Source: Candidatus Micrarchaeota archaeon (GTDB lineage: Archaea; Micrarchaeota; Micrarchaeia; Micrarchaeales; CABMGC01). Taken from it: 64,000 bases of DNA. Position numbers and translations under genes: made by a program. The notes under the pieces were generated by a model. It searched no databases. It was not told the DNA's origin and saw nothing but the letters and a program-made list of their open reading frames with translations. Positions 9,727 to 56,601 of the stretch are shown here, piece after piece. Position 1 is the stretch's first letter. Every line of letters begins with the position of its first letter. The stretch lies in NCBI GenBank assembly GCA_021804095.1, contig JAJZKQ010000001.1, positions 17,993 to 81,992 on the forward strand, read 5' to 3'.

Positions 9727-9749
9727 CGACTTACGTCGTGAATTTTGAG

Positions 9750-9824
9750 TGCTCCCGCCGGGATTTGAACCCGGGTTGCGGGGTTGAAAGCCCCACGTCC
9801 TTGGCCGAGCTAGACGACAGGAGC
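9750..9824 (-). tRNA. tRNA-Glu (anticodon UUC)
   Basis: Hand-folded cloverleaf. Acceptor GCUCCUG/CGGGAGC, D stem GUCU/GGAC, anticodon arm UGGGG-CUUUCAA-CCCCG, T arm CCGGG-UUCAAAU-CCCGG. No encoded CCA and no intron. Confidence 0.9.
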
Positions 9825-11118: not shown

Positions 11119-11703
11119 CTAGATCTGTTTCTCCACTCCTCCGGTTGATACTCTACCTCCTTTCCATTGGCCTTCATAAGCGCGATGTATATCTCCGGCT
11201 ACCTGCATGAAGACTATATTTGCAAATCTTGCGCCAAGCTCAAGCCTGAATGGTTTTCCGCCTAGATTTGCAATGGCGAATGTCAGCTCACCGCTATAGC
11301 CAGGATCAGTCTTTGTAGCCATTAGATATATGCCGCAGCGCTGCAGCGTGCTTCGTGGATATACATGCAGAGAAAGATACATCGGTTTCTCTCCTTCTTC
11401 AATTGTTATCTTTTCTCCTGGAATATTGAATTTCTCAATTGTTTTTACAAGGAGGTATTCGCCTGGAGCCATGATTATATCCTTGTCTCCTTTATCTATG
11501 TCTGCTATTTTTTCCGTGTCTGAGCTCTTGCGGTCTTCAACTCCGAGAAAGCCTTCTCCTATCAGCTTGTATATCTTGCCGGCTCGGATGTCAATGCCTA
11601 CGCCCTCTGGATTTGTAAGCTCTCGCTCATCCATATTCTCTATCAGGTTATACTTTTGATTTAATTCCAATACTTTTAATGTGGATATTATCATTTTATT
11701 CAC
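11119..11703 (-). CDS. dcd: dCTP deaminase / dUTPase-family protein
   Basis: 194 aa. Contains TDPGYSGELTFAIANLGGKPFRLELGARFANIVF, typical of the dCTP deaminase/dUTPase fold. Confidence 0.85.
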   Translation of the reverse strand: MNKMIISTLKVLELNQKYNLIENMDERELTNPEGVGIDIRAGKIYKLIGEGFLGVEDRKSSDTEKIADIDKGDKDIIMAPGEYLLVKTIEKFNIPGEKITIEEGEKPMYLSLHVYPRSTLQRCGIYLMATKTDPGYSGELTFAIANLGGKPFRLELGARFANIVFMQVAGDIHRAYEGQWKGGRVSTGGVEKQI

Positions 11704-13306
11704 TTTTTTTCATGTCGAGCTCTTCCAGTTTTCTGTCTATTCGCTTTTCGCTCTCTATCCTTGGAAGCGCATAGTCATTCATGTCTACCTGCATATACTC
11801 TGCGATTAGAGGATGTTTCTCGAATATTATGTTCCTTAGCCGCTGCGCTACTTTTCTGTAGTCTGGATGTCCTTGTTTGGAAGACCTGAGTTCGGTTATA
11901 TGGAAGGCTTCCCTAAGATTCATTTTTATGTACCATTTCATCCTGAAGCCGCGTGGGACAATATATTGTGCTTCGTTAGGAAGATCGGCATATATGACAT
12001 CATATGCCTCTTTCGCCTTGTCCATGACTTCTTTGAATTCTTTTTCTAAGCCTATCTCAGCAAGCTCGGCAGGCGTGTCAAATCCCATATCCGCAGTCAG
12101 TTCCTGTCTTTCCTGGCTTAGCTGCCTGTGCCTGTGGAGGTCTCTGAAGACTCCGTAGTTTGCACATAGTTCGAATGTATAATATATGTTCTCAAGCGCC
12201 CTGCCCGGCTTATCCCGCCTGTTTCTCCTCTTGGAAAGATAGTCTGAAGCTAGCCGCTTCTTTTCATCAGGAGACATTGCCTTTACTTTGGATAGGAGGG
12301 CATCAAGAGTATCGTCAGAATAGGGATAGAGCATTGCCGCTAGAATCTTATTTTCTCCGTCCGGATCATAATCTACCAATTTTATTGGTTCTGTCTTAGA
12401 TTCTTTGTTTCTTGCTTTATTTCTATGTTTGCTCATCTCTGCCCTTGTATCTATTATATATTCGGAGGGTTTTGACCGTTTTACGAATGCAGGTATTACC
12501 TTTGATAATTCTTCGTGTATATCTTCGGCAAGAAGCTGGGCCTCTTCAAGATTGCTTGAATGGAGCTTTGTAAGAAGATACTCGAATGCCCTTCCATTTC
12601 CATACAGGCCTACATTGGTAAGCCTTCCTGCAGGAAGCAGGTTCTTCAGTATGTCGCATGCCTTGGCTCTTGTCGCGCTCTCATATGCTCGATCTGTGGC
12701 AGCAGGATCTTTAGGCGTTACTGACTTTACATGTGCCTGGACTATGGGAAGCCATTTGGAGTATGAAGAAAAGAGGAGGTCCATTGTTTCTTCGTAGATC
12801 TGCCTGTGTTTTGATGACATTATGGCTTTATTTCTGTACCAGAGATATTTTCCGTCTATTTTTTTATCGAAAAGTATGTACCTTGCAGACTTTTCAAGCG
12901 GTGAAATTCCTATCCTTGAATCGGTAAGAAGGTCTGCTGCAAGGCTGGAGATATTCTCGCATGCAAGATGCACTCCTGCAAGTTCAGCTACTGAATCGTC
13001 CCCATATCCTACAAGAACTCGCTGGTAGAAATCCTCGGCCTTCTTTATCGCCAGTGCGGTGTTGGAGTAATCGGATTGGGATCCTGCGCCTATTACCTCG
13101 GCTATATCTTTGTTCTGAATGAATTCGTCTAGAAGAAGCCTTCTTGCGCCTTTGTCTGATCTGCTATACCTTGAGAATAATGTTCCTTTTATAACTTCAG
13201 GCAGGTTTGTAAGCACGAAAGTGTTCTTCTCCAGGCTTGAAAAATAAGGCTTTATTATCTCCTTCTCATTTTCACTAAGTCTCTCTTTAAAAACAGGCTC
13301 TTCCAC
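11696..13306 (-). CDS. thyX: FAD-dependent thymidylate synthase ThyX, double-length form
   Basis: 536 aa. The ThyX signature RHRxxS appears as DLHRHRQLSQERQ in the C-terminal half. The N-terminal half has a degenerate counterpart (TLFSRYSRSDKG). Overlaps dcd by 8 nt. Confidence 0.85.
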   Translation of the reverse strand: MEEPVFKERLSENEKEIIKPYFSSLEKNTFVLTNLPEVIKGTLFSRYSRSDKGARRLLLDEFIQNKDIAEVIGAGSQSDYSNTALAIKKAEDFYQRVLVGYGDDSVAELAGVHLACENISSLAADLLTDSRIGISPLEKSARYILFDKKIDGKYLWYRNKAIMSSKHRQIYEETMDLLFSSYSKWLPIVQAHVKSVTPKDPAATDRAYESATRAKACDILKNLLPAGRLTNVGLYGNGRAFEYLLTKLHSSNLEEAQLLAEDIHEELSKVIPAFVKRSKPSEYIIDTRAEMSKHRNKARNKESKTEPIKLVDYDPDGENKILAAMLYPYSDDTLDALLSKVKAMSPDEKKRLASDYLSKRRNRRDKPGRALENIYYTFELCANYGVFRDLHRHRQLSQERQELTADMGFDTPAELAEIGLEKEFKEVMDKAKEAYDVIYADLPNEAQYIVPRGFRMKWYIKMNLREAFHITELRSSKQGHPDYRKVAQRLRNIIFEKHPLIAEYMQVDMNDYALPRIESEKRIDRKLEELDMKKSE

Positions 13307-32778: not shown

Positions 32779-33396
32779 TTAAGAGTTATTTGGAGTTATC
32801 GGTACCTGTGGTTTTTGGATGGGAGAGCCTGACTGGAGTGGTGAGCCTGGAGGAGCCTGTGTTGCTATCAATTCTCCTGGACGGTATATCCTATTTTCAA
32901 GAAGCAGATTGTATACGCGGCCTGTATAAAGATCCATTATTATATGGCGCTTTTGATTTCCGAAAAGGTCTGTTTCTGCCAGCTTTCCTGGATGCATCGC
33001 CTTTGCAAGTGTCTCTAAAACAGTCAAGGATCCGGTCTGGGAGTTCTGGAGCCCTATGGCTCTTATCTCTATGTTGGGGTTTTTTATTTTTTTCCTCATT
33101 TTATATACGCTTTCCAGGTATTTTTCTGGCTGTGAAGAGGTTCTTATTGCAAGAACAGTTCTTGTGTTGACGTCGTAGAAAGATAGGAATATATCTGAGA
33201 TTATGTTTTTTGCTATTATATGGCTTCGGTCAAGGTTCCATTCTGCAATAATGGAGCTCTCCTCCTGAAGTTCATCTGAGAATTCCTTATAGCGCAGTAT
33301 TGAGGTATTCCACCGTTCGCCTGTCTTAAGCCAGAGTTGGCTGGAGCCGAATGATTTCGCGCCTTTTTTTCCAGTGTATGTCTTCCAGAAATCCAT
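32779..33396 (-). CDS. Hypothetical protein (Cys-free; weak CheD-like C-terminal pattern, see findings)
   Basis: 205 aa ORF with a Pro/Gln/Ser-rich tail. No firm family. Confidence 0.6.
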   Translation of the reverse strand: MDFWKTYTGKKGAKSFGSSQLWLKTGERWNTSILRYKEFSDELQEESSIIAEWNLDRSHIIAKNIISDIFLSFYDVNTRTVLAIRTSSQPEKYLESVYKMRKKIKNPNIEIRAIGLQNSQTGSLTVLETLAKAMHPGKLAETDLFGNQKRHIIMDLYTGRVYNLLLENRIYRPGELIATQAPPGSPLQSGSPIQKPQVPITPNNS

Positions 33397-33470
33397 ATGT
33401 CTTTCAAGAGTCGCAAATATTTATATATATTGTCAGGTAAAGTATATTCTACCCTTATTCCGGTTTTTGA

Positions 33471-34037
33471 ATGAAATTGACCATATTAGATGATTCACCA
33501 GGCGTGTTGAGGTTCAGGATAGATGAAACCAGTGTTAATTTTGTAAATGCGATAAGGAGAATAGCAACCAACAGCATAAAATCCATTGCAATAGACTCGA
33601 TAACGTTCTATGAAAATTCCAGTGCCATATTTGATGAATATATAGCGCACAGGATTGGGCTTGTTCCAATACTTACACCTGAAGGCTTTGGTGAGAAGGA
33701 TGAGGTAATTTTCAAGCTTGATGCTGAAGGCCCCGGCACAATCTATTCTGAAAAGCTTGAAAGCAATGACAAATCAGTCAAAGTTGCAAATGGAAAGATA
33801 CCGATAATTAAGCTTGCTGGAGGGCAGAAATTAAGATTGGAAGGAAAGGCCATAATGGGCTCGGGATCTTCTAGCGCAAAGTTCCAGCCTGGCCTCGTAA
33901 CATACAAGCAGCTGACCGATAGCTCCTTTGAGTTTTATATTGAATCTTTCGGGCAGATGCCTGCTCTGGAGATAATAGAGAAGACGCTAAGTATAATAAC
34001 CAACAATATCAAAGAGGTACACAAAGAACTTAAGTGA
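33471..34037 (+). CDS. rpoD: DNA-directed RNA polymerase subunit D (short form)
   Basis: 188 aa. FVNAIRRIATNSIKSIAIDSITFYENSSAIFDEYIAHRIGLVPI. It heads the conserved rpoD-L18e-L13-S9-rpoN cluster. Confidence 0.8.
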   Translation: MKLTILDDSPGVLRFRIDETSVNFVNAIRRIATNSIKSIAIDSITFYENSSAIFDEYIAHRIGLVPILTPEGFGEKDEVIFKLDAEGPGTIYSEKLESNDKSVKVANGKIPIIKLAGGQKLRLEGKAIMGSGSSSAKFQPGLVTYKQLTDSSFEFYIESFGQMPALEIIEKTLSIITNNIKEVHKELK

Positions 34038-34041
34038 AGAC

Positions 34042-34128
34042 GCGGGGGTGGCAGAGCCTGGTCAAATGCGCTGGCTTGAGGGGTCAGTAGCTTTAGTGCT
34101 TGCGCGAGTTCGAATCTCGTCCCCCGCA
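34042..34128 (+). tRNA. tRNA-Leu (anticodon GAG), long variable arm
   Basis: Acceptor GCGGGGG/CCCCCGC, anticodon arm CUGGC-UUGAGGG-GUCAG, T arm GCGAG-UUCGAAU-CUCGU, with about a 17-nt variable arm. No intron. Confidence 0.85.
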
Positions 34129-34158
34129 TAGAAAGAGATATTTATTTCAGATGAGAAA

Positions 34159-34497
34159 ATGGAAAAGAACAGTATAAAGAGATTGATAGAGAATCTTGAA
34201 AAGATAGACAAGAAGGCGAAGAACGCCAAGCTTGCCTTGAAGGTAATTAAGATAGCTGGGCTTCCTAGGAGAAGGCGGATATCGATAAACCTGGAGGAGC
34301 TTAATGAGCTGGCAAAGCCTGGAGAGAATATAATAGTTCCTGGAAAAGTTTTAGGCACAGGGAATGTAGATAAAGCATTTGGTATAGCAGCTATTGAGCT
34401 TTCTGGAAGCTCTGAGAAAAAGCTCAAGGAGGCAGGGTGTACCCTTATAAGCATAGAAGAAATGCTTAAGAAGGAGAATGCTAGACTTTTAGTCTGA
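34159..34497 (+). CDS. rpl18e: Ribosomal protein L18e
   Basis: 112 aa. Its position between rpoD and rpl13 fits, and it contains PRRRRISINLEELNELAKPGENIIVPGKVLGTG. Confidence 0.85.
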   Translation: MEKNSIKRLIENLEKIDKKAKNAKLALKVIKIAGLPRRRRISINLEELNELAKPGENIIVPGKVLGTGNVDKAFGIAAIELSGSSEKKLKEAGCTLISIEEMLKKENARLLV

Positions 34498-34508
34498 AAG
34501 GTGAAGAA

Positions 34509-34946
34509 ATGAAATACTTGATAGATGGAGAAGATGCAATACTTGGGAGAGTAGGAAGTAAGGTAGCCAAGCTCCTGATAGAGGGTAATGAAGTGGCTCT
34601 TATAAATGCGGAAAGGATAAGGATAACAGGACATATACCTGACCTTGCCATGAAATATAAGAGATTGATAGAGTTGAAAGACAGAGCCAATCCTGAACAT
34701 TCCCCTTTTTACTCTAGAAGGCCTGACCTCTTTGTAAAGAGAAGCATAAGAGGGATGCTGCCATACAAGCAGCCTAAGGGAAAGGAAGCATACAAGCTTC
34801 TTAAAGTCTATATGGGAGATGCGAAAGATATAAAAGAGGCAAAAACATATACTATAAAGGATGTCAAAGCCAAGAAAGCCGGAGACGCTTTTGAGAACTC
34901 GGTTTCAGTTCTTGAGCTGGTTGAGAAATTAGGATATAAGAAATGA
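34509..34946 (+). CDS. rpl13: Ribosomal protein L13
   Basis: 145 aa. IDGEDAILGRVGSKVAKLL...RSIRGMLP. Confidence 0.9.
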   Translation: MKYLIDGEDAILGRVGSKVAKLLIEGNEVALINAERIRITGHIPDLAMKYKRLIELKDRANPEHSPFYSRRPDLFVKRSIRGMLPYKQPKGKEAYKLLKVYMGDAKDIKEAKTYTIKDVKAKKAGDAFENSVSVLELVEKLGYKK

Positions 34947-35515
34947 TTAATATGGCAGAGCAGACGCAAAATAAGAAAGGGACTGCAGATTTGGAAAAGG
35001 AGATAAGTGAGTTCAACGAGAGCTATGCCAAATCATCCAAAAAGGCAAAGCCTGCGCAGAGGAGAACAGCTCCGGCAGCGCAGAAGAAGACACAGAGAAA
35101 GTCCAAGAAGGAAACCATAGTATCGAGAGGAAAGAGGAAGAGGGCGATTGCCAGGGCAAGCATGAGTAGCGGCAGTGGCAGAATCACAGTCAACGGAGTA
35201 AGTGCTGAGCTCATAAAACCAAAGGAGATAAGAGACCTTATACTTGAGCCTATAATCATTTCGAAGAAAGTGAGCAGCCTTATGAAGAATTATGACGTAA
35301 AAATTAATGTTTATGGTGGAGGAATTATGGGACAGGCGCAGGCTTCAAGGACCGCTCTCGCAAACGCAATAGTAGAGACAACCCATGATGAAGGACTAAG
35401 CAAAGCCTACATGATATACGACAGAAGCATACTTGTGGAAGACCATAGAAGAGTTGAGCCTAAGAAATTTGGAGGACCTAAGGCTCGTGCAAGAAACCAG
35501 ACCTCATACAGATGA
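34943..35515 (+). CDS. rps9: Ribosomal protein S9 with Lys-rich N-terminal extension
   Basis: 190 aa. The core begins at IVSRGKRKRAIARAS and ends KFGGPKARARNQTSYR. About 55 extra N-terminal residues. Confidence 0.9.
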   Translation: MINMAEQTQNKKGTADLEKEISEFNESYAKSSKKAKPAQRRTAPAAQKKTQRKSKKETIVSRGKRKRAIARASMSSGSGRITVNGVSAELIKPKEIRDLILEPIIISKKVSSLMKNYDVKINVYGGGIMGQAQASRTALANAIVETTHDEGLSKAYMIYDRSILVEDHRRVEPKKFGGPKARARNQTSYR

Positions 35516-35524
35516 TGTGATAGA

Positions 35525-35725
35525 ATGATGATACCAGTAAGATGTTTCTCATGCGGTCAGGTAATAGCTGACAAGTGGGAGGAGTACGACAGAAGAGTGA
35601 ATAAAGGAAAGGAAGATCCCAAAAAAGTCATCGCAGACCTTGGCATAAAGAGATACTGCTGCAGCAGAATGCTCATAGGAAACATCGAGCTTATTGATGA
35701 GATAATAAACTACGGAAGGAAGTAA
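35525..35725 (+). CDS. rpoN: DNA-directed RNA polymerase subunit N (RPB10)
   Basis: 66 aa. [13 protein letters not shown]...YCCSRML zinc motif. Confidence 0.9.
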
Positions 35726-35821
35726 TGCTTTGGATAATGCTGTGCCAGGTTATAATTTTAGGCGGTATGGAGCGGCATATAGGAAAGTATATATAAGGAT
35801 AAAGACAAATGTTTTAAGCGC

Positions 35822-35913
35822 GGGGTCGTCTGCTAGTCTGGTCAGGCTCTGTGCTTAGGGAGCACATGACCCGAGTTCAAATGGCATGATGCCTGAAAGT
35901 CTCGGCGACCCCG
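35822..35913 (+). tRNA. tRNA with 18-nt insertion in the T-loop; anticodon loop UUAGGGA (formal anticodon AGG, Pro family; isotype provisional)
   Basis: Acceptor GGGGUCG/CGACCCC, anticodon arm UGUGC-UUAGGGA-GCACA. The T stem CCGAG (35871-75) + UUCAAAU is followed by GGCATGATGCCTGAAAGT (35883-35900) before the pairing strand CUCGG (35901-05). D stem is only 3 bp (U10-U25 mismatch). Confidence 0.65.
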
Positions 35914-35930
35914 AATTAAGGAATGGTTTT

Positions 35931-36557
35931 ATGGCAACACAAGAGGAACAGAATTCGTTAATAGATCAATCAACATATCTGGATGTAGGAATACATATAG
36001 GCACAAAGGTAAAGACTCCGGGAATGAAGAGATTCATATATAAAGTAAGGGAAGACAGCCTCTACCTTCTTGATCTTAATACCATAGACAATAGGATAAG
36101 GATAGCCGCAAAGATGCTTGCAAGATATGAGCCAAAGGACATAGTAGTAACAGCATCGAGGATATATTCGGTTTCTGCAGCTACAAAATTTGCAGAGATA
36201 GTAGGTGCAAAGCTTATGACAGGCAGAGTAATGCCTGGCGTATTCACAAACCCTAACAGGAGCGACTTTTCCGAGCCTGAGATACTTTTGATAAGCGATA
36301 ATAGAAACGAGAGGCAGGCAGTTAAAGAAGCAAACAAGACAAATATACCGATCATAGCTTTGTGCGACACAGATAACTGGATGAAGTTTGTAGACCTCGT
36401 TATACCTTGCAACAACAAGGGAAGAAGGTCTCTTGCGCTTATCTACTATCTTCTTTCAAGGGAATTCATGAAGGAGAAAGGATTAATAAAGACCAATGAA
36501 GAATTCCAATATAAGATCTCGGATTTCGAAGCGAAAGTAGAGATGAAGGCAAAATAG
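35931..36557 (+). CDS. rps2: Ribosomal protein S2
   Basis: I moved the start to ATG 35931 (MATQEEQNSL...), because the track start at 35886 lies inside the tRNA. Contains YLDVGIHIGTK...PIIALCDTD. Confidence 0.9.
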   Translation: MATQEEQNSLIDQSTYLDVGIHIGTKVKTPGMKRFIYKVREDSLYLLDLNTIDNRIRIAAKMLARYEPKDIVVTASRIYSVSAATKFAEIVGAKLMTGRVMPGVFTNPNRSDFSEPEILLISDNRNERQAVKEANKTNIPIIALCDTDNWMKFVDLVIPCNNKGRRSLALIYYLLSREFMKEKGLIKTNEEFQYKISDFEAKVEMKAK

Positions 36558-36558
36558 A

Positions 36559-37104
36559 ATGTCGTTGATTGGAGGCACTAACAGGAAGCGTCTGCAGGTT
36601 GCAGTCGACTTTATGTCTTCTTATGGAGTTGCAATATTAATAATGGCAGTAGCGATAGGCATAGCCTACATACTAAGCTCTGGAGTGACGAATGCCTTTG
36701 CGCCTGAATGTATTCCTTCGCCTGGATTCTCATGTGGATACTTCAGCATGGCAGATAATGGCTCCCTGATAATACAGGTATCGCAAGCCACAGGATCTGC
36801 AATAACAGTCAACGGAATTGCATGTTCCACTCTTTCTGGGCTTAATGGCCTTCCTAAATATGGAAACCTGTATGTGAATTCAAATTCAATGTATTATCCT
36901 GAGGGATTCACACCTCCTGCAAATATACCAAGCGGAGGGAGCTTTACTTTCTTCCTGTACTGCTACGGGCCCAAAGGACTATCGAGATTTTCAAAAGCAG
37001 GAAGCACATTTGTAGGGTATATCTGGATGAATTATACACTATACAATACAAAAATAAATACAACACAGCAGATTGCCAGCATACAATTGCAGACAACAGG
37101 TTGA
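36559..37104 (+). CDS. Type IV pilin-like protein (class III signal peptide)
   Basis: 181 aa. N-terminus NRKRLQVAVDFMSSYGVAILIMAVAIGIAYIL is a charged stretch, Gln, an acidic residue at +5 and a hydrophobic helix. It parallels the RLQSAMEYLMTYGWAIFIIAVV N-terminus of ORF 40002..40964. Confidence 0.55.
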   Translation: MSLIGGTNRKRLQVAVDFMSSYGVAILIMAVAIGIAYILSSGVTNAFAPECIPSPGFSCGYFSMADNGSLIIQVSQATGSAITVNGIACSTLSGLNGLPKYGNLYVNSNSMYYPEGFTPPANIPSGGSFTFFLYCYGPKGLSRFSKAGSTFVGYIWMNYTLYNTKINTTQQIASIQLQTTG

Positions 37105-37188
37105 AAATTGTATAATCTCAGAGAGGAAAGTTTACCCCTCAGTATATAAATTTTTCCTCTGTTAATATAGCGACAGAATGGTGTATTT

Positions 37189-37422
37189 ATGGCTACGAAT
37201 CATGACAGACCTTTCGATCTTCTTAACAAATCGATAGGGCAGCAGGTACTTATAAGATTAAAGAACGGAACAGACTTGAGGGGGAAGGTCCAGTCTTTTG
37301 ATGTTCATATGAACATTGTTCTTGAGAATTGCGAAGAGCTTGATGAAAGCGGAAGTGCAAGGGCAAAACTCGGAGTCATACTTCTCAGAGGAGGAAACAT
37401 ACTATTCCTATCGCCGGCATGA
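37189..37422 (+). CDS. Sm-like archaeal protein (SmAP/LSm)
   Basis: 77 aa. Sm1/Sm2 motifs VLIRLKNGTDLRGKVQSFDVHMNIVLENCEE...ILLRGGNILFLSP. Confidence 0.9.
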   Translation: MATNHDRPFDLLNKSIGQQVLIRLKNGTDLRGKVQSFDVHMNIVLENCEELDESGSARAKLGVILLRGGNILFLSPA

Positions 37423-37462
37423 AAAGGTATTTCTGTCTTTGCGGTTAATACTACTTACAGAT

Positions 37463-37567
37463 GGGCTTGTAGCGCAACGGCAGCGCGCCTGCATGGCATG
37501 CAGGAGGTTGCGGGTTCAAAAAAAACCTTCCCGTATTGAGAGGTTTATGGAATTCCCGCCAAGTCCA
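37463..37567 (+). tRNA. tRNA-Ala (anticodon GGC) with 33-nt insertion in the T-loop
   Basis: Acceptor GGGCUUG/CAAGUCC with the G3:U70 Ala identity pair. D arm GCGC-AACGGCA-GCGC, anticodon arm CCUGC-AUGGCAU-GCAGG. T stem GCGGG (37510-14) + UUCAAA, then about 33 nt (37521-37553) before U-CCCGC (37554-59). Confidence 0.75.
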
Positions 37568-37568
37568 T

Positions 37569-38066
37569 CTATTTATCTGTTCTTTTCCGCGTATAGATTA
37601 TTCTTGTAAATTTTTTATGTATTTCAGGCTTTTCCGCAATCCAATCTTTTTTATTGAAATCGGGGAAGAATGTATCACCCATGTATCTGCCTTTTACATA
37701 TGATAGATACATTTTGTCTGCAATGCCGATGGCCTGGGAGAAGATCTCTCCGCCGCCTATTACGAATATCTCTTTATCTTTGGACTTCTCAGCCGCTTTT
37801 ATGGCCATATCTAGACTTTTGTATATTTCTATGCCTGGCCTTTTTTTGAGGCTTCGGCTTATTACAATATTTCTGCGATTTTTCAAGATCCCGGTATCAA
37901 GAAAGGTCCTCTTTCCCATTATTATTGTGTGTCCTAATGTGAGTTTCTTGAATAGCGCTGTTTCTTCTGGAATATTCCATGGTAACTTACCGTCTTTCCC
38001 TATTACCAGGTCTTTTGAGACTGCGGCAACCAGTGATATCATCAGATCATCGAGGAGCCTAGCCAT
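37569..38066 (-). CDS. folA: Dihydrofolate reductase
   Basis: 165 aa. ISLVAAVSKDLVIGKDGKLPWNIPEETALFKKLTLGHTIIMGKRTF...FVIGGGEIF. Confidence 0.85.
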   Translation of the reverse strand: MARLLDDLMISLVAAVSKDLVIGKDGKLPWNIPEETALFKKLTLGHTIIMGKRTFLDTGILKNRRNIVISRSLKKRPGIEIYKSLDMAIKAAEKSKDKEIFVIGGGEIFSQAIGIADKMYLSYVKGRYMGDTFFPDFNKKDWIAEKPEIHKKFTRIIYTRKRTDK

Positions 38067-38362
38067 GCCAGATATTCGGTGCTTGCCATTCCTATATTAA
38101 AAGAAATTATCTCGGGAAGCTCATACTTGTGTGTTTTCTTTAGCTCCTCTTCAATTTTTTTGTATTTGGAATTTTTTGTCTTTATGATACATATCCATTC
38201 TCTTGAGATGTGTGGTTTCCCTTTCCATGTATAATAGCTTTTTACAGGTCCCGTTACCTTTGTACATCCCGCAAGACGTTTTTCCATAATAAGCTTGGCC
38301 ATTCTTTCCGCTTCTTTTTTGCTGTCAACAGAAGTCATTATAATGATAAAGCCTTTTCCCAT
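38042..38362 (-). CDS. cutA: CutA1 divalent-cation tolerance protein
   Basis: 106 aa. VKSYYTWKGKPHISREWICIIKT...YELPEII is a CutA pattern. Overlaps folA by 25 nt. Confidence 0.8.
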   Translation of the reverse strand: MGKGFIIIMTSVDSKKEAERMAKLIMEKRLAGCTKVTGPVKSYYTWKGKPHISREWICIIKTKNSKYKKIEEELKKTHKYELPEIISFNIGMASTEYLAWLGSSMI

Positions 38363-38409
38363 GGTATCTAGTTATTTATTGCTTTAATTCCTATATTTGT
38401 TGCGGTAAG

Positions 38410-39384
38410 ATGATAGTTTTAGGGATGGAGAGCAGCGCACATACCTTCGGCGTTGGCATAGTAGATAACGGAAAGGTGCTTGCGAATGAAAAAGCCATGT
38501 ACAGGATAGGCACTGCAGGAATGATACCGGGAGAGGTGGCTAGATTCCATGCTGAAAATGCCGCAGAGGTATTAGGCATGGCTCTGGAGAAGGCAGGAAT
38601 AAGCAATAATGAAATAGAAGGGATAGGATATACAATGGGGCCTGGGCTTGGACCATGTCTTGAGGTTGCACAGCTATCCGCAAAGACAGTAGCTAAGAAG
38701 CTGGGGGTGCCTATAGTTCCTGTAAACCATTGCGCTGCACATGCGGAGATAGCCAGGCATTTCGGAAGGCTTGCCGATCCGATAATGCTATATGTAAGCG
38801 GAGGGAACTCGCAGATACTTGTTCTTGAGGAGAGGCCGTATTTGCATTATGTTGTGCTAGGCGAGACTTTCGATATAGGAGTAGGAAACATGCTTGACTC
38901 TTTTGCCAGGAAGCTCAAGCTTGAGCCGGCTTGGGGGTCAAGCATAGAAAAACATTCGCAGGGAGGTAGATATATTGAACTTCCATATACGGTAAAGGGA
39001 ATGGATTTTTCGTTTACAGGCCTGGCAACAAGAGCCACTGAGCTCATTGGAGAGGAAAGGCTTTCAGACCTCTGTTTTTCAATACAGGAAACTGCTTTTT
39101 CGGCATTATGTGAGGCTACTGAGAGGGCGATGCTTCTTAAGAATAAGAGAGAGATAGGAATTTGCGGAGGCGTTGCCCAGAATAGAAAATTAAGGGAGAT
39201 GCTCGAGGAAGTGGGAAGAGAACATGATGCAAAATTTGGATTTGCTCCTGACGAATTCAATGCGGATAATGGAGGGATGGTAGCATATCTTGCAGAGCGT
39301 ATGATAGGATCTGGGATAAAAAGCAGGCTTGAGGATTGCGGGATCAGGCAGAAATACAGGGTTGATACAGCAAGATTGGGATGA
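38410..39384 (+). CDS. kae1: tRNA N6-adenosine threonylcarbamoyltransferase Kae1
   Basis: 324 aa. LGMESSAHTFGVGIV, the metal-binding VNHCAAHAE, and ICGGVAQN. Confidence 0.9.
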   Translation: MIVLGMESSAHTFGVGIVDNGKVLANEKAMYRIGTAGMIPGEVARFHAENAAEVLGMALEKAGISNNEIEGIGYTMGPGLGPCLEVAQLSAKTVAKKLGVPIVPVNHCAAHAEIARHFGRLADPIMLYVSGGNSQILVLEERPYLHYVVLGETFDIGVGNMLDSFARKLKLEPAWGSSIEKHSQGGRYIELPYTVKGMDFSFTGLATRATELIGEERLSDLCFSIQETAFSALCEATERAMLLKNKREIGICGGVAQNRKLREMLEEVGREHDAKFGFAPDEFNADNGGMVAYLAERMIGSGIKSRLEDCGIRQKYRVDTARLG

Positions 39385-39387
39385 TGT

Positions 39388-39987
39388 ATGGACAATTCGA
39401 AAGTCATAGGGGTTGGCGCGGAAGCGAGGCTTTCCCTAATAAATTTGTTTGGAAGTGATATAGTAGTCAAAGAAAGGCTGCCTAAAAAATACAGAGCTAA
39501 AGAATTGGATCTCAGAATTCGGAAGGAGCGTACAAAGAATGAGGCAAGAATAATGTTCAGGATTTCGAGAGCAGGGATAAGATGCCCAAGAATAGTGGCG
39601 CTTGGGCGCTTTTCTATATATATGGAAAGATTGGAAGGGGTACTTTTGAAAGACAAAAAAATAAGCAACAAGGAAATTGCCGAATCTGGGCGCATACTTG
39701 GAAGCATGCATTCTTTAGATATAGTACATGGGGATTTTACTCCTGCGAATCTTATATCAGATAATTCAGGGAAGATCTATGTAATAGATTTTGGACTGGC
39801 TGAAATGACAAGGAGCGAGGAGGAGAAGGCAGTAGATCTTCTTCTTATGAAGAGATATCTGAAGAGGAATCTTTACCGTTTGTTTGAAGATTCTTATTCT
39901 AAAACCTACAATGATTCGGAGAAGATTCTCAGGAGGCTTGTCGAAGTAGAGAAAAGAGGAAGATACCAGACAAGGACTCTGGCATAG
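39388..39987 (+). CDS. bud32: Bud32/PRPK atypical kinase (KEOPS subunit)
   Basis: 199 aa. GAEARL, HGDFTPANLI, and IDFGLA. Directly follows kae1 as a separate gene. Confidence 0.8.
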   Translation: MDNSKVIGVGAEARLSLINLFGSDIVVKERLPKKYRAKELDLRIRKERTKNEARIMFRISRAGIRCPRIVALGRFSIYMERLEGVLLKDKKISNKEIAESGRILGSMHSLDIVHGDFTPANLISDNSGKIYVIDFGLAEMTRSEEEKAVDLLLMKRYLKRNLYRLFEDSYSKTYNDSEKILRRLVEVEKRGRYQTRTLA

Positions 39988-40001
39988 ATTGTTCTCTTAA
40001 T

Positions 40002-48654: not shown

Positions 48655-49815
48655 TCAGGGTTGGATCCAGTCTATTTCATAATATTCGGCTTTGCTGTCT
48701 TTTAGTTTTATCTGCTTGATTTTATAGTAGGTTACTGCCGTTTCCCGATCGGCTATTGCAATAACTAGTTCTATTTTTAGGCGCTTGGCTTCCTTTATTG
48801 CACTTGCAAGTTCTGCGCCTCCTATAAATTCTTCTTCGCCGAAGGAGAGCATGGCATATCTTGGAGGATTGTCGTTTGGATTTTCTGAATCTCCAGATCT
48901 TCGATGGTAAAGTATGAAGTCTATTTCTGTCTTTCTGCTGTTTTTTTTGCCAGGAACTGCTAGGATAAACGTCTTCCTTACTGAATGGGCTACCCTTATT
49001 GCCCTCGCCCATTCAGATATTAGTAGGCGCGAGTTTCTTGGAAATACATGTACCACATGCCTTGAGTGCGCCCACTCCCCATTTTCTGCCTTGAATGGCT
49101 TTGCTCCTGGGAAATATATCCTAAAGTGTGTTCCAAACTTGAAGCCCGTCTTTACCACATAGCCATTCTTCCTCCAGTCTTTGTATACAGAATATAATAG
49201 ACCAAATTGGCCATGTCTGCTTTTTAGTTCTCCTATTAGCCTCTTTTTGTTTATATTGGTAAGTCTAAGCTGCCCGTTTTCAATTAAGAACAGTGTTTCA
49301 TATACGTCAAGCTTGTTTAGGTTTCCTCTGTCTGAGGCTTTGTAGGAACCGTATTGTCCGAACCAGAATGACTCGTAGATCTCTTTTGCCTTTTCTGTGC
49401 GGTTTATGACAGTCACAAGATCGGTAATAAAGAAGGTCCCTGAAAAGTGGTACCCGTGGAGGGAGAGTTTTTTTGAAGGATACTCCTTTATAGGATTGGA
49501 ATGGGGCCTTTTGTGCTTGGTCTCCGGTGTCTTTATTATAAGCCCCCTGTCTCTCCAGTCTTTATAAGTAAGGTATTTCGCCATGAACTTCTTTTCTTTC
49601 CAGAATTTTCCGGCAATCTCGTTGAATGATAATTTTGAACCTTTGTAATATATCTCCGCATTTCTCACATCTGCAAGATATAACGCTTCGAATATTGAGA
49701 GCTGTGTAGGATTTCCTTTCTTAGGTTTTCCTAGAAATCCTCTTTCCAGTATATCTTTTGTAGATTGGTCTTCTGCGGTTATTTTTTTCCTTGAATGGTA
49801 ATTTAGGACTATCAT
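48655..49815 (-). CDS. endA: tRNA-splicing endonuclease, multi-unit single polypeptide
   Basis: 386 aa. One complete catalytic unit (YSVYKDWRKNGYVVKTGFKFGTHFRIY...HSRHVVHV...RVAHSVRKTFILAV). There is also an N-terminal partial unit (LSIFEALYLA...YLTYKDWRDRGLIIKT) and a C-terminal extra segment (YAMLSFGEEEFIGGAELASAIKEAKRLKIELVIAIAD). Confidence 0.85.
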   Translation of the reverse strand: MIVLNYHSRKKITAEDQSTKDILERGFLGKPKKGNPTQLSIFEALYLADVRNAEIYYKGSKLSFNEIAGKFWKEKKFMAKYLTYKDWRDRGLIIKTPETKHKRPHSNPIKEYPSKKLSLHGYHFSGTFFITDLVTVINRTEKAKEIYESFWFGQYGSYKASDRGNLNKLDVYETLFLIENGQLRLTNINKKRLIGELKSRHGQFGLLYSVYKDWRKNGYVVKTGFKFGTHFRIYFPGAKPFKAENGEWAHSRHVVHVFPRNSRLLISEWARAIRVAHSVRKTFILAVPGKKNSRKTEIDFILYHRRSGDSENPNDNPPRYAMLSFGEEEFIGGAELASAIKEAKRLKIELVIAIADRETAVTYYKIKQIKLKDSKAEYYEIDWIQP

Positions 49816-56442: not shown

Positions 56443-56514
56443 GTGGGGTCCAGGTTGTCTTTTTTAATAATATTTTAATATAGTGAAATAGTCTCTTGAC
56501 AATGTAGGTCTGTA

Positions 56515-56589
56515 TAGCGGGGAGTGGATTTGAACCACCGTTCTCTGGGTTATGAGCCCAGCGGGCACTCCGAGCTACCCTACCCCGCT
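56515..56589 (-). tRNA. Initiator tRNA-Met (anticodon CAU)
   Basis: It has an A1:U72 acceptor end (AGCGGGG/CCCCGCU). The anticodon arm CUGGG-CUCAUAA-CCCAG carries three G:C pairs. Both are archaeal initiator hallmarks. T arm GGUGG-UUCAAAU-CCACU. Confidence 0.9.
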
Positions 56590-56601
56590 ACTGATTCAGT
56601 T

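Follow-up and report, generated by a model that had tools for sequence, protein, structure and literature searches.

The window, a 64,000-nt stretch of contig JAJZKQ010000001.1, belongs to a tiny archaeon of the Micrarchaeota, and the genes surrounding the locus are archaeal housekeeping genes, encoding the ribosomal proteins L13, S9 and S2, LSm, Kae1, a RIO/Bud32-like kinase and Orc1/Cdc6. On the forward strand at 37463-37567 lies a tRNA-Ala(GGC) gene that is interrupted in its T loop, placed directly behind the gene of the Sm-like protein:

37189..37422, forward strand: LSm (Sm-like) gene, with its stop 40 nt upstream of tRNA-Ala
37463..37520, forward strand: 5' exon of tRNA-Ala(GGC), tRNA positions 1-59, with the same sequence (100% identity) in six related genomes
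37521..37553, forward strand: predicted BHB intron of 33 nt at position 59/60; orthologues carry 13-44 nt at the same site
37554..37567, forward strand: 3' exon, comprising U60, the 3' strand of the T stem, the 3' strand of the acceptor stem and the discriminator A

The attributes by which the sequence-only reading had recognised a tRNA-Ala, namely the G3:U70 pair, the GGC anticodon and perfect D and anticodon stems, are all found in the gene. The acceptor stem is of 7 bp (GGGCTTG/CAAGTCC) and includes G3:U70, the D stem (GCGC/GCGC) is perfect, and so is the anticodon stem (CCTGC/GCAGG), whose loop AUGGCAU presents the anticodon GGC. CCA is not encoded. The T stem is formed by GCGGG (37510-14) and CCCGC (37555-59), and the insert, AAAAACCTTCCCGTATTGAGAGGTTTATGGAAT (37521-37553), is flanked by TTCAAA (37515-20) on its 5' side and by T37554 on its 3' side, which places it between T-loop positions 59 and 60. 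The same reading had counted 33 extra nucleotides after UUCAAA; deletion of exactly these leaves 72 nt that ARAGORN calls as a clean tRNA-Ala(ggc) with a flawless cloverleaf. As it stands, the gene at 37463-37567 is called by ARAGORN in neither its standard nor its intron modes, the latter because the program models introns of the anticodon loop only. The Rfam tRNA model gives a partial match of 31 bits (37470-37534) to the unspliced gene, in which GCGGG is paired with CCCGU of the insert (37530-34). This pairing was rejected: it is not followed by the 3' strand of the acceptor stem, and L001, the nearest relative, reads CCCAU at that place.

The junctions were then drawn by a script using the canonical archaeal intron geometry (an arm stem, a 4-bp helix, and a 3-nt bulge cut after its second nucleotide), which found one fitting motif, with an outer helix h of 5 bp, a central helix H of 4 bp, two 3-nt bulges and an inner helix h' of 7 bp. 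In the canonical 37/38 intron, tRNA position 32 pairs with intron position -3; the topology taken from that intron agrees with the intron-less alleles described below. The elements of the motif are as follows, with a caret at each predicted cut:

37510-37514 : 37555-37559, forward strand: outer helix h, the T stem GCGGG:CCCGC, which pairs in all 15 aligned sequences
37515-37518 : 37548-37551, forward strand: central helix H, UUCA:UGGA (U-A, U·G, C-G, A-U), with its 5' strand at positions 54-57 and its 3' strand in the intron; covariation A57:U versus G57:C across 55 sequences
37519..37521, forward strand: 5' bulge B1, AA^A, predicted cut after 37520; AA^N in 55/55 intron-bearing sequences
37552..37554, forward strand: 3' bulge B2, AU^U, predicted cut after 37553; AA^U in 48/55 relatives
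37523-37529 : 37540-37546, forward strand: inner helix h', AAACCUU:GAGGUUU, with two-sided changes at all 7 pairs in relatives

The inner helix is the hairpin already noticed inside the insert, now seen to extend over 7 bp (AAACCUU/GAGGUUU, 37523-29/37540-46). It is set off from the 5' bulge by the adjoining mismatch A37522·A37547, which effectively widens that bulge, and the central helix holds one U·G pair. With h' offset by this one A·A mismatch, the motif is a near-canonical, slightly relaxed hBHBh'. The expectation that a proper BHB or a relaxed HBh' could be drawn at the junctions was borne out in so far as a near-canonical motif can be drawn; it departs from the strict form by the A37522·A37547 mismatch and the single U·G pair. 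Both departures are well within the demonstrated tolerance of ε2 EndA, and the strict hBHBh' form is present in the relatives L020 and L029 and in the tRNA-Pro of the window. The cloverleaf with the BHB is 0.9 kcal/mol less stable than the minimum free energy structure, and that thermodynamic minimum lacks the 4-bp central helix, which is a point against the BHB reading.

Orthologues of the gene were collected in two ways. A search with the adjacent S2 protein gave 80 loci from Micrarchaeota genomes, 14 of which contain a syntenic tRNA-Ala(GGC), and in all 14 an insertion of 20-41 nt occupies the same place. Among the 15 syntenic genes, that of the window included, the exons are near-invariant and the introns are very different in sequence. 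In the alignment of these 15 sequences, 94.5% of cells agree with the cloverleaf plus BHB pairing, against 34-50% when the partners are slid by 1-3 columns; the central helix H is paired in 95%, and the acceptor stem also shows compensatory changes. The closest relative (L001, with an S2 protein 99% identical) has exons identical to those of the window, and its intron differs by a compensatory change of CC/GG to CU/AG and by 2 nt in length. An invariant 38-mer of the tRNA-Ala gene, used to scan metagenomes, gave 65 more loci, and genome and metagenome loci, pooled and de-duplicated, amount to 58 distinct pre-tRNA-Ala(GGC) sequences, 55 of them with an intron of 13-44 nt at 59/60. Position 57 faces the first nucleotide of the intron strand of H, which is U in 31 of the 33 sequences with A57; of the 22 with G57, 16 have C there and 1 has U. 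These counts overstate the number of independent events, since the compared sequences are related. The short introns (13-16 nt) are without the inner helix h'. Many of the metagenome orthologues (L081, L085, L100 and others) carry U-rich introns of this length, for example UAUUUCUUUUCGAAAA, in a minimal hBH or loop form.

These comparisons bear on the idea that the gene is a dead tRNA (a pseudogene) or the scar of an insertion or integration event, as might be supposed from the failure of standard tRNA finders to call it and from the merely partial Rfam match. A dead gene would not be expected to keep near-invariant exons across genomes whose S2 proteins are ~75-99% identical and whose introns differ, nor an acceptor stem with compensatory changes; the insert is only 33 nt long, it is accompanied by neither a duplicated tRNA end nor an adjoining integrase, its neighbours being LSm and DHFR, and its site is occupied in 55 of the 58 distinct orthologous sequences. 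We consider this explanation extremely improbable. An att site in a tRNA gene would be marked by a mobile element with an integrase, bordered by a repeated copy of the tRNA 3' segment. The size of the insert, the LSm and DHFR neighbours and the filling of the site in 55/58 sequences led us to reject this as well.

Three of the 58 distinct sequences, from six metagenome loci, are intron-less, and their junction reads TTCAAA^T or TTCGAA^T (the caret here marking position 59/60), which is the predicted spliced product; against the Rfam tRNA model these alleles score 65-66 bits. The loci are taken as orthologous on account of the LSm gene, which lies immediately upstream in every one of them. The closest comparison is that of the intron-less L124 (12280-12352, reverse strand) with L136 (6835-6936, reverse strand), which carries a 30-nt intron: their LSm proteins are 98.6% identical, the exons of the two tRNA genes are identical, and nothing but a clean indel of 30 nt at 59/60 separates the genes. 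The alleles lacking the intron are spread over at least three lineages, an indication that it has been lost or gained repeatedly. The same alleles help to place the cuts. An intron cut at other phosphates (for instance at 58/59, giving a T loop UUCAAUU), or processed in a relaxed hBH mode, without regard to the inner hairpin, is suggested by the run of eight A and the AUU bulge, which leave the exact cut ambiguous from the window sequence alone, by the A·A mismatch that weakens h', and by the relatives of 13-16 nt without any h', which imply that the enzyme does not need this helix. The BHB geometry nevertheless puts each cut behind the second bulge nucleotide, at 59/60, and the intron-less alleles read UUCAAAU or UUCGAAU, not UUCAAUU, so that we regard such alternative processing as highly unlikely.

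The window also encodes a candidate for the cleaving enzyme, about 11 kb from the tRNA-Ala(GGC) gene:

48655..49815, reverse strand: ε2-type (three-unit) tRNA-splicing endonuclease EndA of 386 aa, by its Pfam domains and a full-length match to 4FZ2

The sequence-only reading had named an EndA at these coordinates, and the Pfam and 4FZ2 matches agree with it and place the protein in the broad-specificity ε2 type. Pfam recognises the tRNA-intron-endonuclease N-terminal and catalytic domains, together with a weak match to a second N-terminal domain, and residues 3-386 align to residues 4-387 of the ARMAN-2 EndA (PDB 4FZ2) with an E-value of 1e-143. The αN, α and βC units of the protein make up one polypeptide chain, collinear with that of ARMAN-2. 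Its specific loop, GSYKASDR with K159, corresponds to GTYKVSEH with K161 in ARMAN-2, and its catalytic triad Y234/H250/K281 to Y236/H251/K282. In the ARMAN-2 enzyme the loop lysine K161 and the catalytic triad matter by mutagenesis, and it is K161 in the specific loop that confers broad specificity (PMC3488258). The ARMAN-2 ε2 EndA cut the 13-nt 59/60 intron of pre-tRNA-Cys in vitro, and the ARMAN-2 pre-tRNA-Pro(GGG) also has a 59/60 intron (PMC3239211). The protein encoded at 48655-49815 is the predicted enzyme for both the tRNA-Ala and the tRNA-Pro introns of the window. No RtcB (RNA ligase) was found among the window ORFs of at least 380 aa; its gene could lie elsewhere in the genome.

We propose that in the precursor the T stem GCGGG:CCCGC would be extended by a 4-bp helix between T-loop positions 54-57 (UUCA) and UGGA of the intron, with a 3-nt bulge on either side of it (A58 A59^A and A U^U60), a geometry that would have the same relation to the T stem as that of the canonical 37/38 intron has to the anticodon stem. 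The ε2 endonuclease from 48655-49815, presumably acting as a homodimer, would cut each bulge behind its second nucleotide; A59 and U60 would then be joined by an RNA ligase whose gene would lie elsewhere in the genome, to give the T loop UUCAAAU, and CCA would be added after ligation. Very probably, then, the tRNA-Ala(GGC) gene is functional and the 33 nt at 37521-37553 are its archaeal BHB intron, situated at 59/60 and removed by the ε2 EndA with joining of the exons by a ligase. This assignment draws on the motif, on the tRNA that results from deletion of the insert, on the gene for an enzyme that keeps the key residues, on conservation and covariation, and on the intron-less alleles with the predicted junction. 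The comparative data strongly favour splicing at this junction; from these sequence data we infer that cleavage and ligation take place in the host organism.

Should the insert be retained instead, the mature tRNA-Ala would have an enlarged T loop with an extra hairpin. The insert does fold as a stable hairpin of its own, and the splicing of this gene is a prediction. The T-loop fold and the contact between T loop and D loop are established tRNA structure, and a T loop of 40 nt would disrupt both. The insert turns over freely in sequence and in length (13-44 nt), and what is kept are only the features recognised by EndA, that is, the covarying 4-bp helix and the two 3-nt A-rich bulges; moreover, intron-less alleles exist at the orthologous locus, and the organism encodes an enzyme of the type that cuts such motifs. 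Retention is, on this evidence, exceedingly improbable.

Several other kinds of element were considered as well. A self-splicing group I or group II intron was dismissed, as the insert has 33 nt and a catalytic core requires hundreds of nucleotides; a search of Rfam over 33000-40000 at E ≤ 10 gave no match other than tRNA. A C/D box guide RNA is recognised by a C box (RUGAUGA), a D box (CUGA) and a guide spacer. An intron-borne RNA of this kind, as in the Haloferax tRNA-Trp intron, was rejected, the 33 nt containing neither a C nor a D box and the relatives sharing no such motif. A split or permuted tRNA was considered and rejected.

The window contains four further tRNA genes, one of them also interrupted:

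35822..35913, forward strand: tRNA-Pro(AGG) gene with a strict hBHBh' intron of 18 nt at 59/60 (35882-35899)
9749-9824: tRNA-Glu, intron-free and full-length
34042-34128: tRNA-Leu-GAG, intron-free and full-length
56514-56590: tRNA-Met, intron-free and full-length

The motif of the tRNA-Pro gene reads CCGAG-UUCA-AA^U-GGCA..UGCC-UGAA-AG^U-CUCGG, and removal of 35882-35899 gives tRNA-Pro(agg). Two earlier claims are correct on this point: the tRNA at 35822 is interrupted at the same site as tRNA-Ala, by an 18-nt intron in a strict hBHBh' at 59/60, and the Glu, Leu-GAG and Met genes are full length and uninterrupted. When the putative intron was removed from each of 14,692 BHB-like candidates on both strands of the whole window and the products were passed to ARAGORN, the only genuine new tRNAs came from the tRNA-Ala and tRNA-Pro sites. 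A third match was discarded as a spurious alternative inside the intact tRNA-Met.

Beyond the window, a strict pattern search for the 59/60 architecture over 689 kb, comprising the window and the related loci, gave 62 matches against 0-1 in reversed or shuffled controls, indicating that the pattern is not due to chance. All 62 become ARAGORN tRNAs after removal of the insert (Pro-AGG 37, Ala-GGC 12, Pro-GGG 11 and Arg-TCG 2). The suggestion of a recurrent 59/60 intron class stands in that the tRNA-Pro of the window carries an intron at the same position; the class itself is not new, having been published for ARMAN-2 in 2011 (PMC3239211).

Two side observations concern these other isoacceptors. 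The tRNA-Pro next to S2 has a weak D stem and the anticodon AGG, in which the wobble base is A, an unusual choice in archaea. Among the S2-linked Pro genes, 48 have a 59/60 intron, 37 of them with AGG and 11 with GGG, which makes Pro(AGG) the common form beside S2 in Micrarchaeota (37/48 genes); Fujishima et al. 2011 recorded Pro(AGG) only in ARMAN-4 and ARMAN-5, not in the ε2-bearing ARMAN-2 (PMC3239211). The tRNA-Arg(TCG) genes with 59/60 introns lie in L072 (3645-3760, reverse strand) and L069 (2465-2570, reverse strand), and that of L072 shares its D arm, its T arm and much of its intron with the tRNA-Ala(GGC) of L006, a likeness that hints at a shared origin or at intron transfer between tRNA genes.

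Among known systems, the closest is that of the 59/60 introns of ARMAN-2, for which both the introns and their cleavage by the ε2 EndA were published in 2011 (PMC3239211). The phylum, the intron position, the T stem as outer helix, the participation of positions 54-57 in the central helix and the ε2 EndA are all the same (PMC3239211), and the tRNA-Ala orthologues with introns of 13-16 nt look like the hBH type of substrate that was tested in vitro with ARMAN-2. The intron of the window differs in its isoacceptor (Ala-GGC), in its greater length (33 nt) with an inner hairpin, and in a motif close to the full hBHBh' with one mismatch; the EndA of the window comes from a different organism and, despite the E-value of 1e-143, differs from that of ARMAN-2 at many positions. 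The tRNA-Ala(GGC) intron is of the same kind as the ARMAN-2 59/60 introns, in a different Micrarchaeota lineage and isoacceptor. With the canonical 37/38 intron (hBHBh') of archaea and eukaryotes it has in common the 5-bp arm stem, the 4-bp helix, the cut behind the second nucleotide of a 3-nt bulge, the enzyme family and the cleavage chemistry, whereas its motif is on the T arm and not on the anticodon arm. On a relaxed T-loop intron the α4 and α'2 enzymes, which are of narrow specificity, have hardly any activity (PMC3488258). The non-canonical and multiple introns of the Thermoproteales (Crenarchaeota), cut by an (αβ)2 EndA, offer a parallel in their many non-canonical sites, often with a relaxed BHB, and in their rapid turnover by gain and loss; their enzyme has a different architecture, and its broad specificity comes from a Crenarchaea-specific loop rather than the ARMAN-type loop, the two loops being regarded as convergent (PMC3488258).

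The tRNA-Ala intron leaves current understanding unchanged and is a solid but ordinary case, a well-documented addition to the examples that link broad-specificity ε2 endonucleases to disrupted tRNA genes in Micrarchaeota. What it contributes is incremental: it shows how deeply such an intron is conserved at one locus, how widely its form varies at a single site, and that close relatives differ in having or lacking it. The 55 intron variants (13-44 nt, from loop-only to full hBHBh'), together with the intron-less alleles, could serve as a natural data set on the substrate needs of the ε2 EndA and on the loss of tRNA introns. In practice, both the tRNA-Ala and the tRNA-Pro genes escape standard tRNA finders, so that the tRNA sets of such genomes would look incomplete.

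It is conceivable, if unlikely, that the intron is kept by selection rather than merely tolerated, whether because it protects the 3' half of the tRNA or because it acts as a binding or processing signal. Bearing on this are the presence of an intron in 55/58 alleles despite complete turnover of its sequence, the at least three separate intron-less lineages, the closeness of the tRNA to the LSm stop codon, and the U-rich nature of many of the short introns. If selection were at work, a T-loop intron might shield the 3' half of the tRNA from integrating elements, or the intron might be a signal directed, for instance, at the co-encoded Sm-like protein, by which tRNA maturation would be tied to the expression of LSm.

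The linkage of LSm and tRNA-Ala is kept in 55 of the 65 metagenome loci, with a spacer of 13-45 nt in the 15 genome loci and of about 100 nt in one metagenome locus. A spacer of 13-45 nt leaves little room for a promoter, and the two genes are therefore probably co-transcribed. A TTG-start ORF of 97 aa (37316-37609, forward strand) crosses the tRNA-Ala gene; it is almost certainly spurious, but automatic gene calling might annotate it where the tRNA is overlooked. Elsewhere in the window, a ThyX ORF (11696-13306, reverse strand) encodes 536 aa, of which the best-matching Thy1 stretch covers residues 309-499 only; Pfam reports two matching stretches, and the protein may be a duplicated or extended ThyX.
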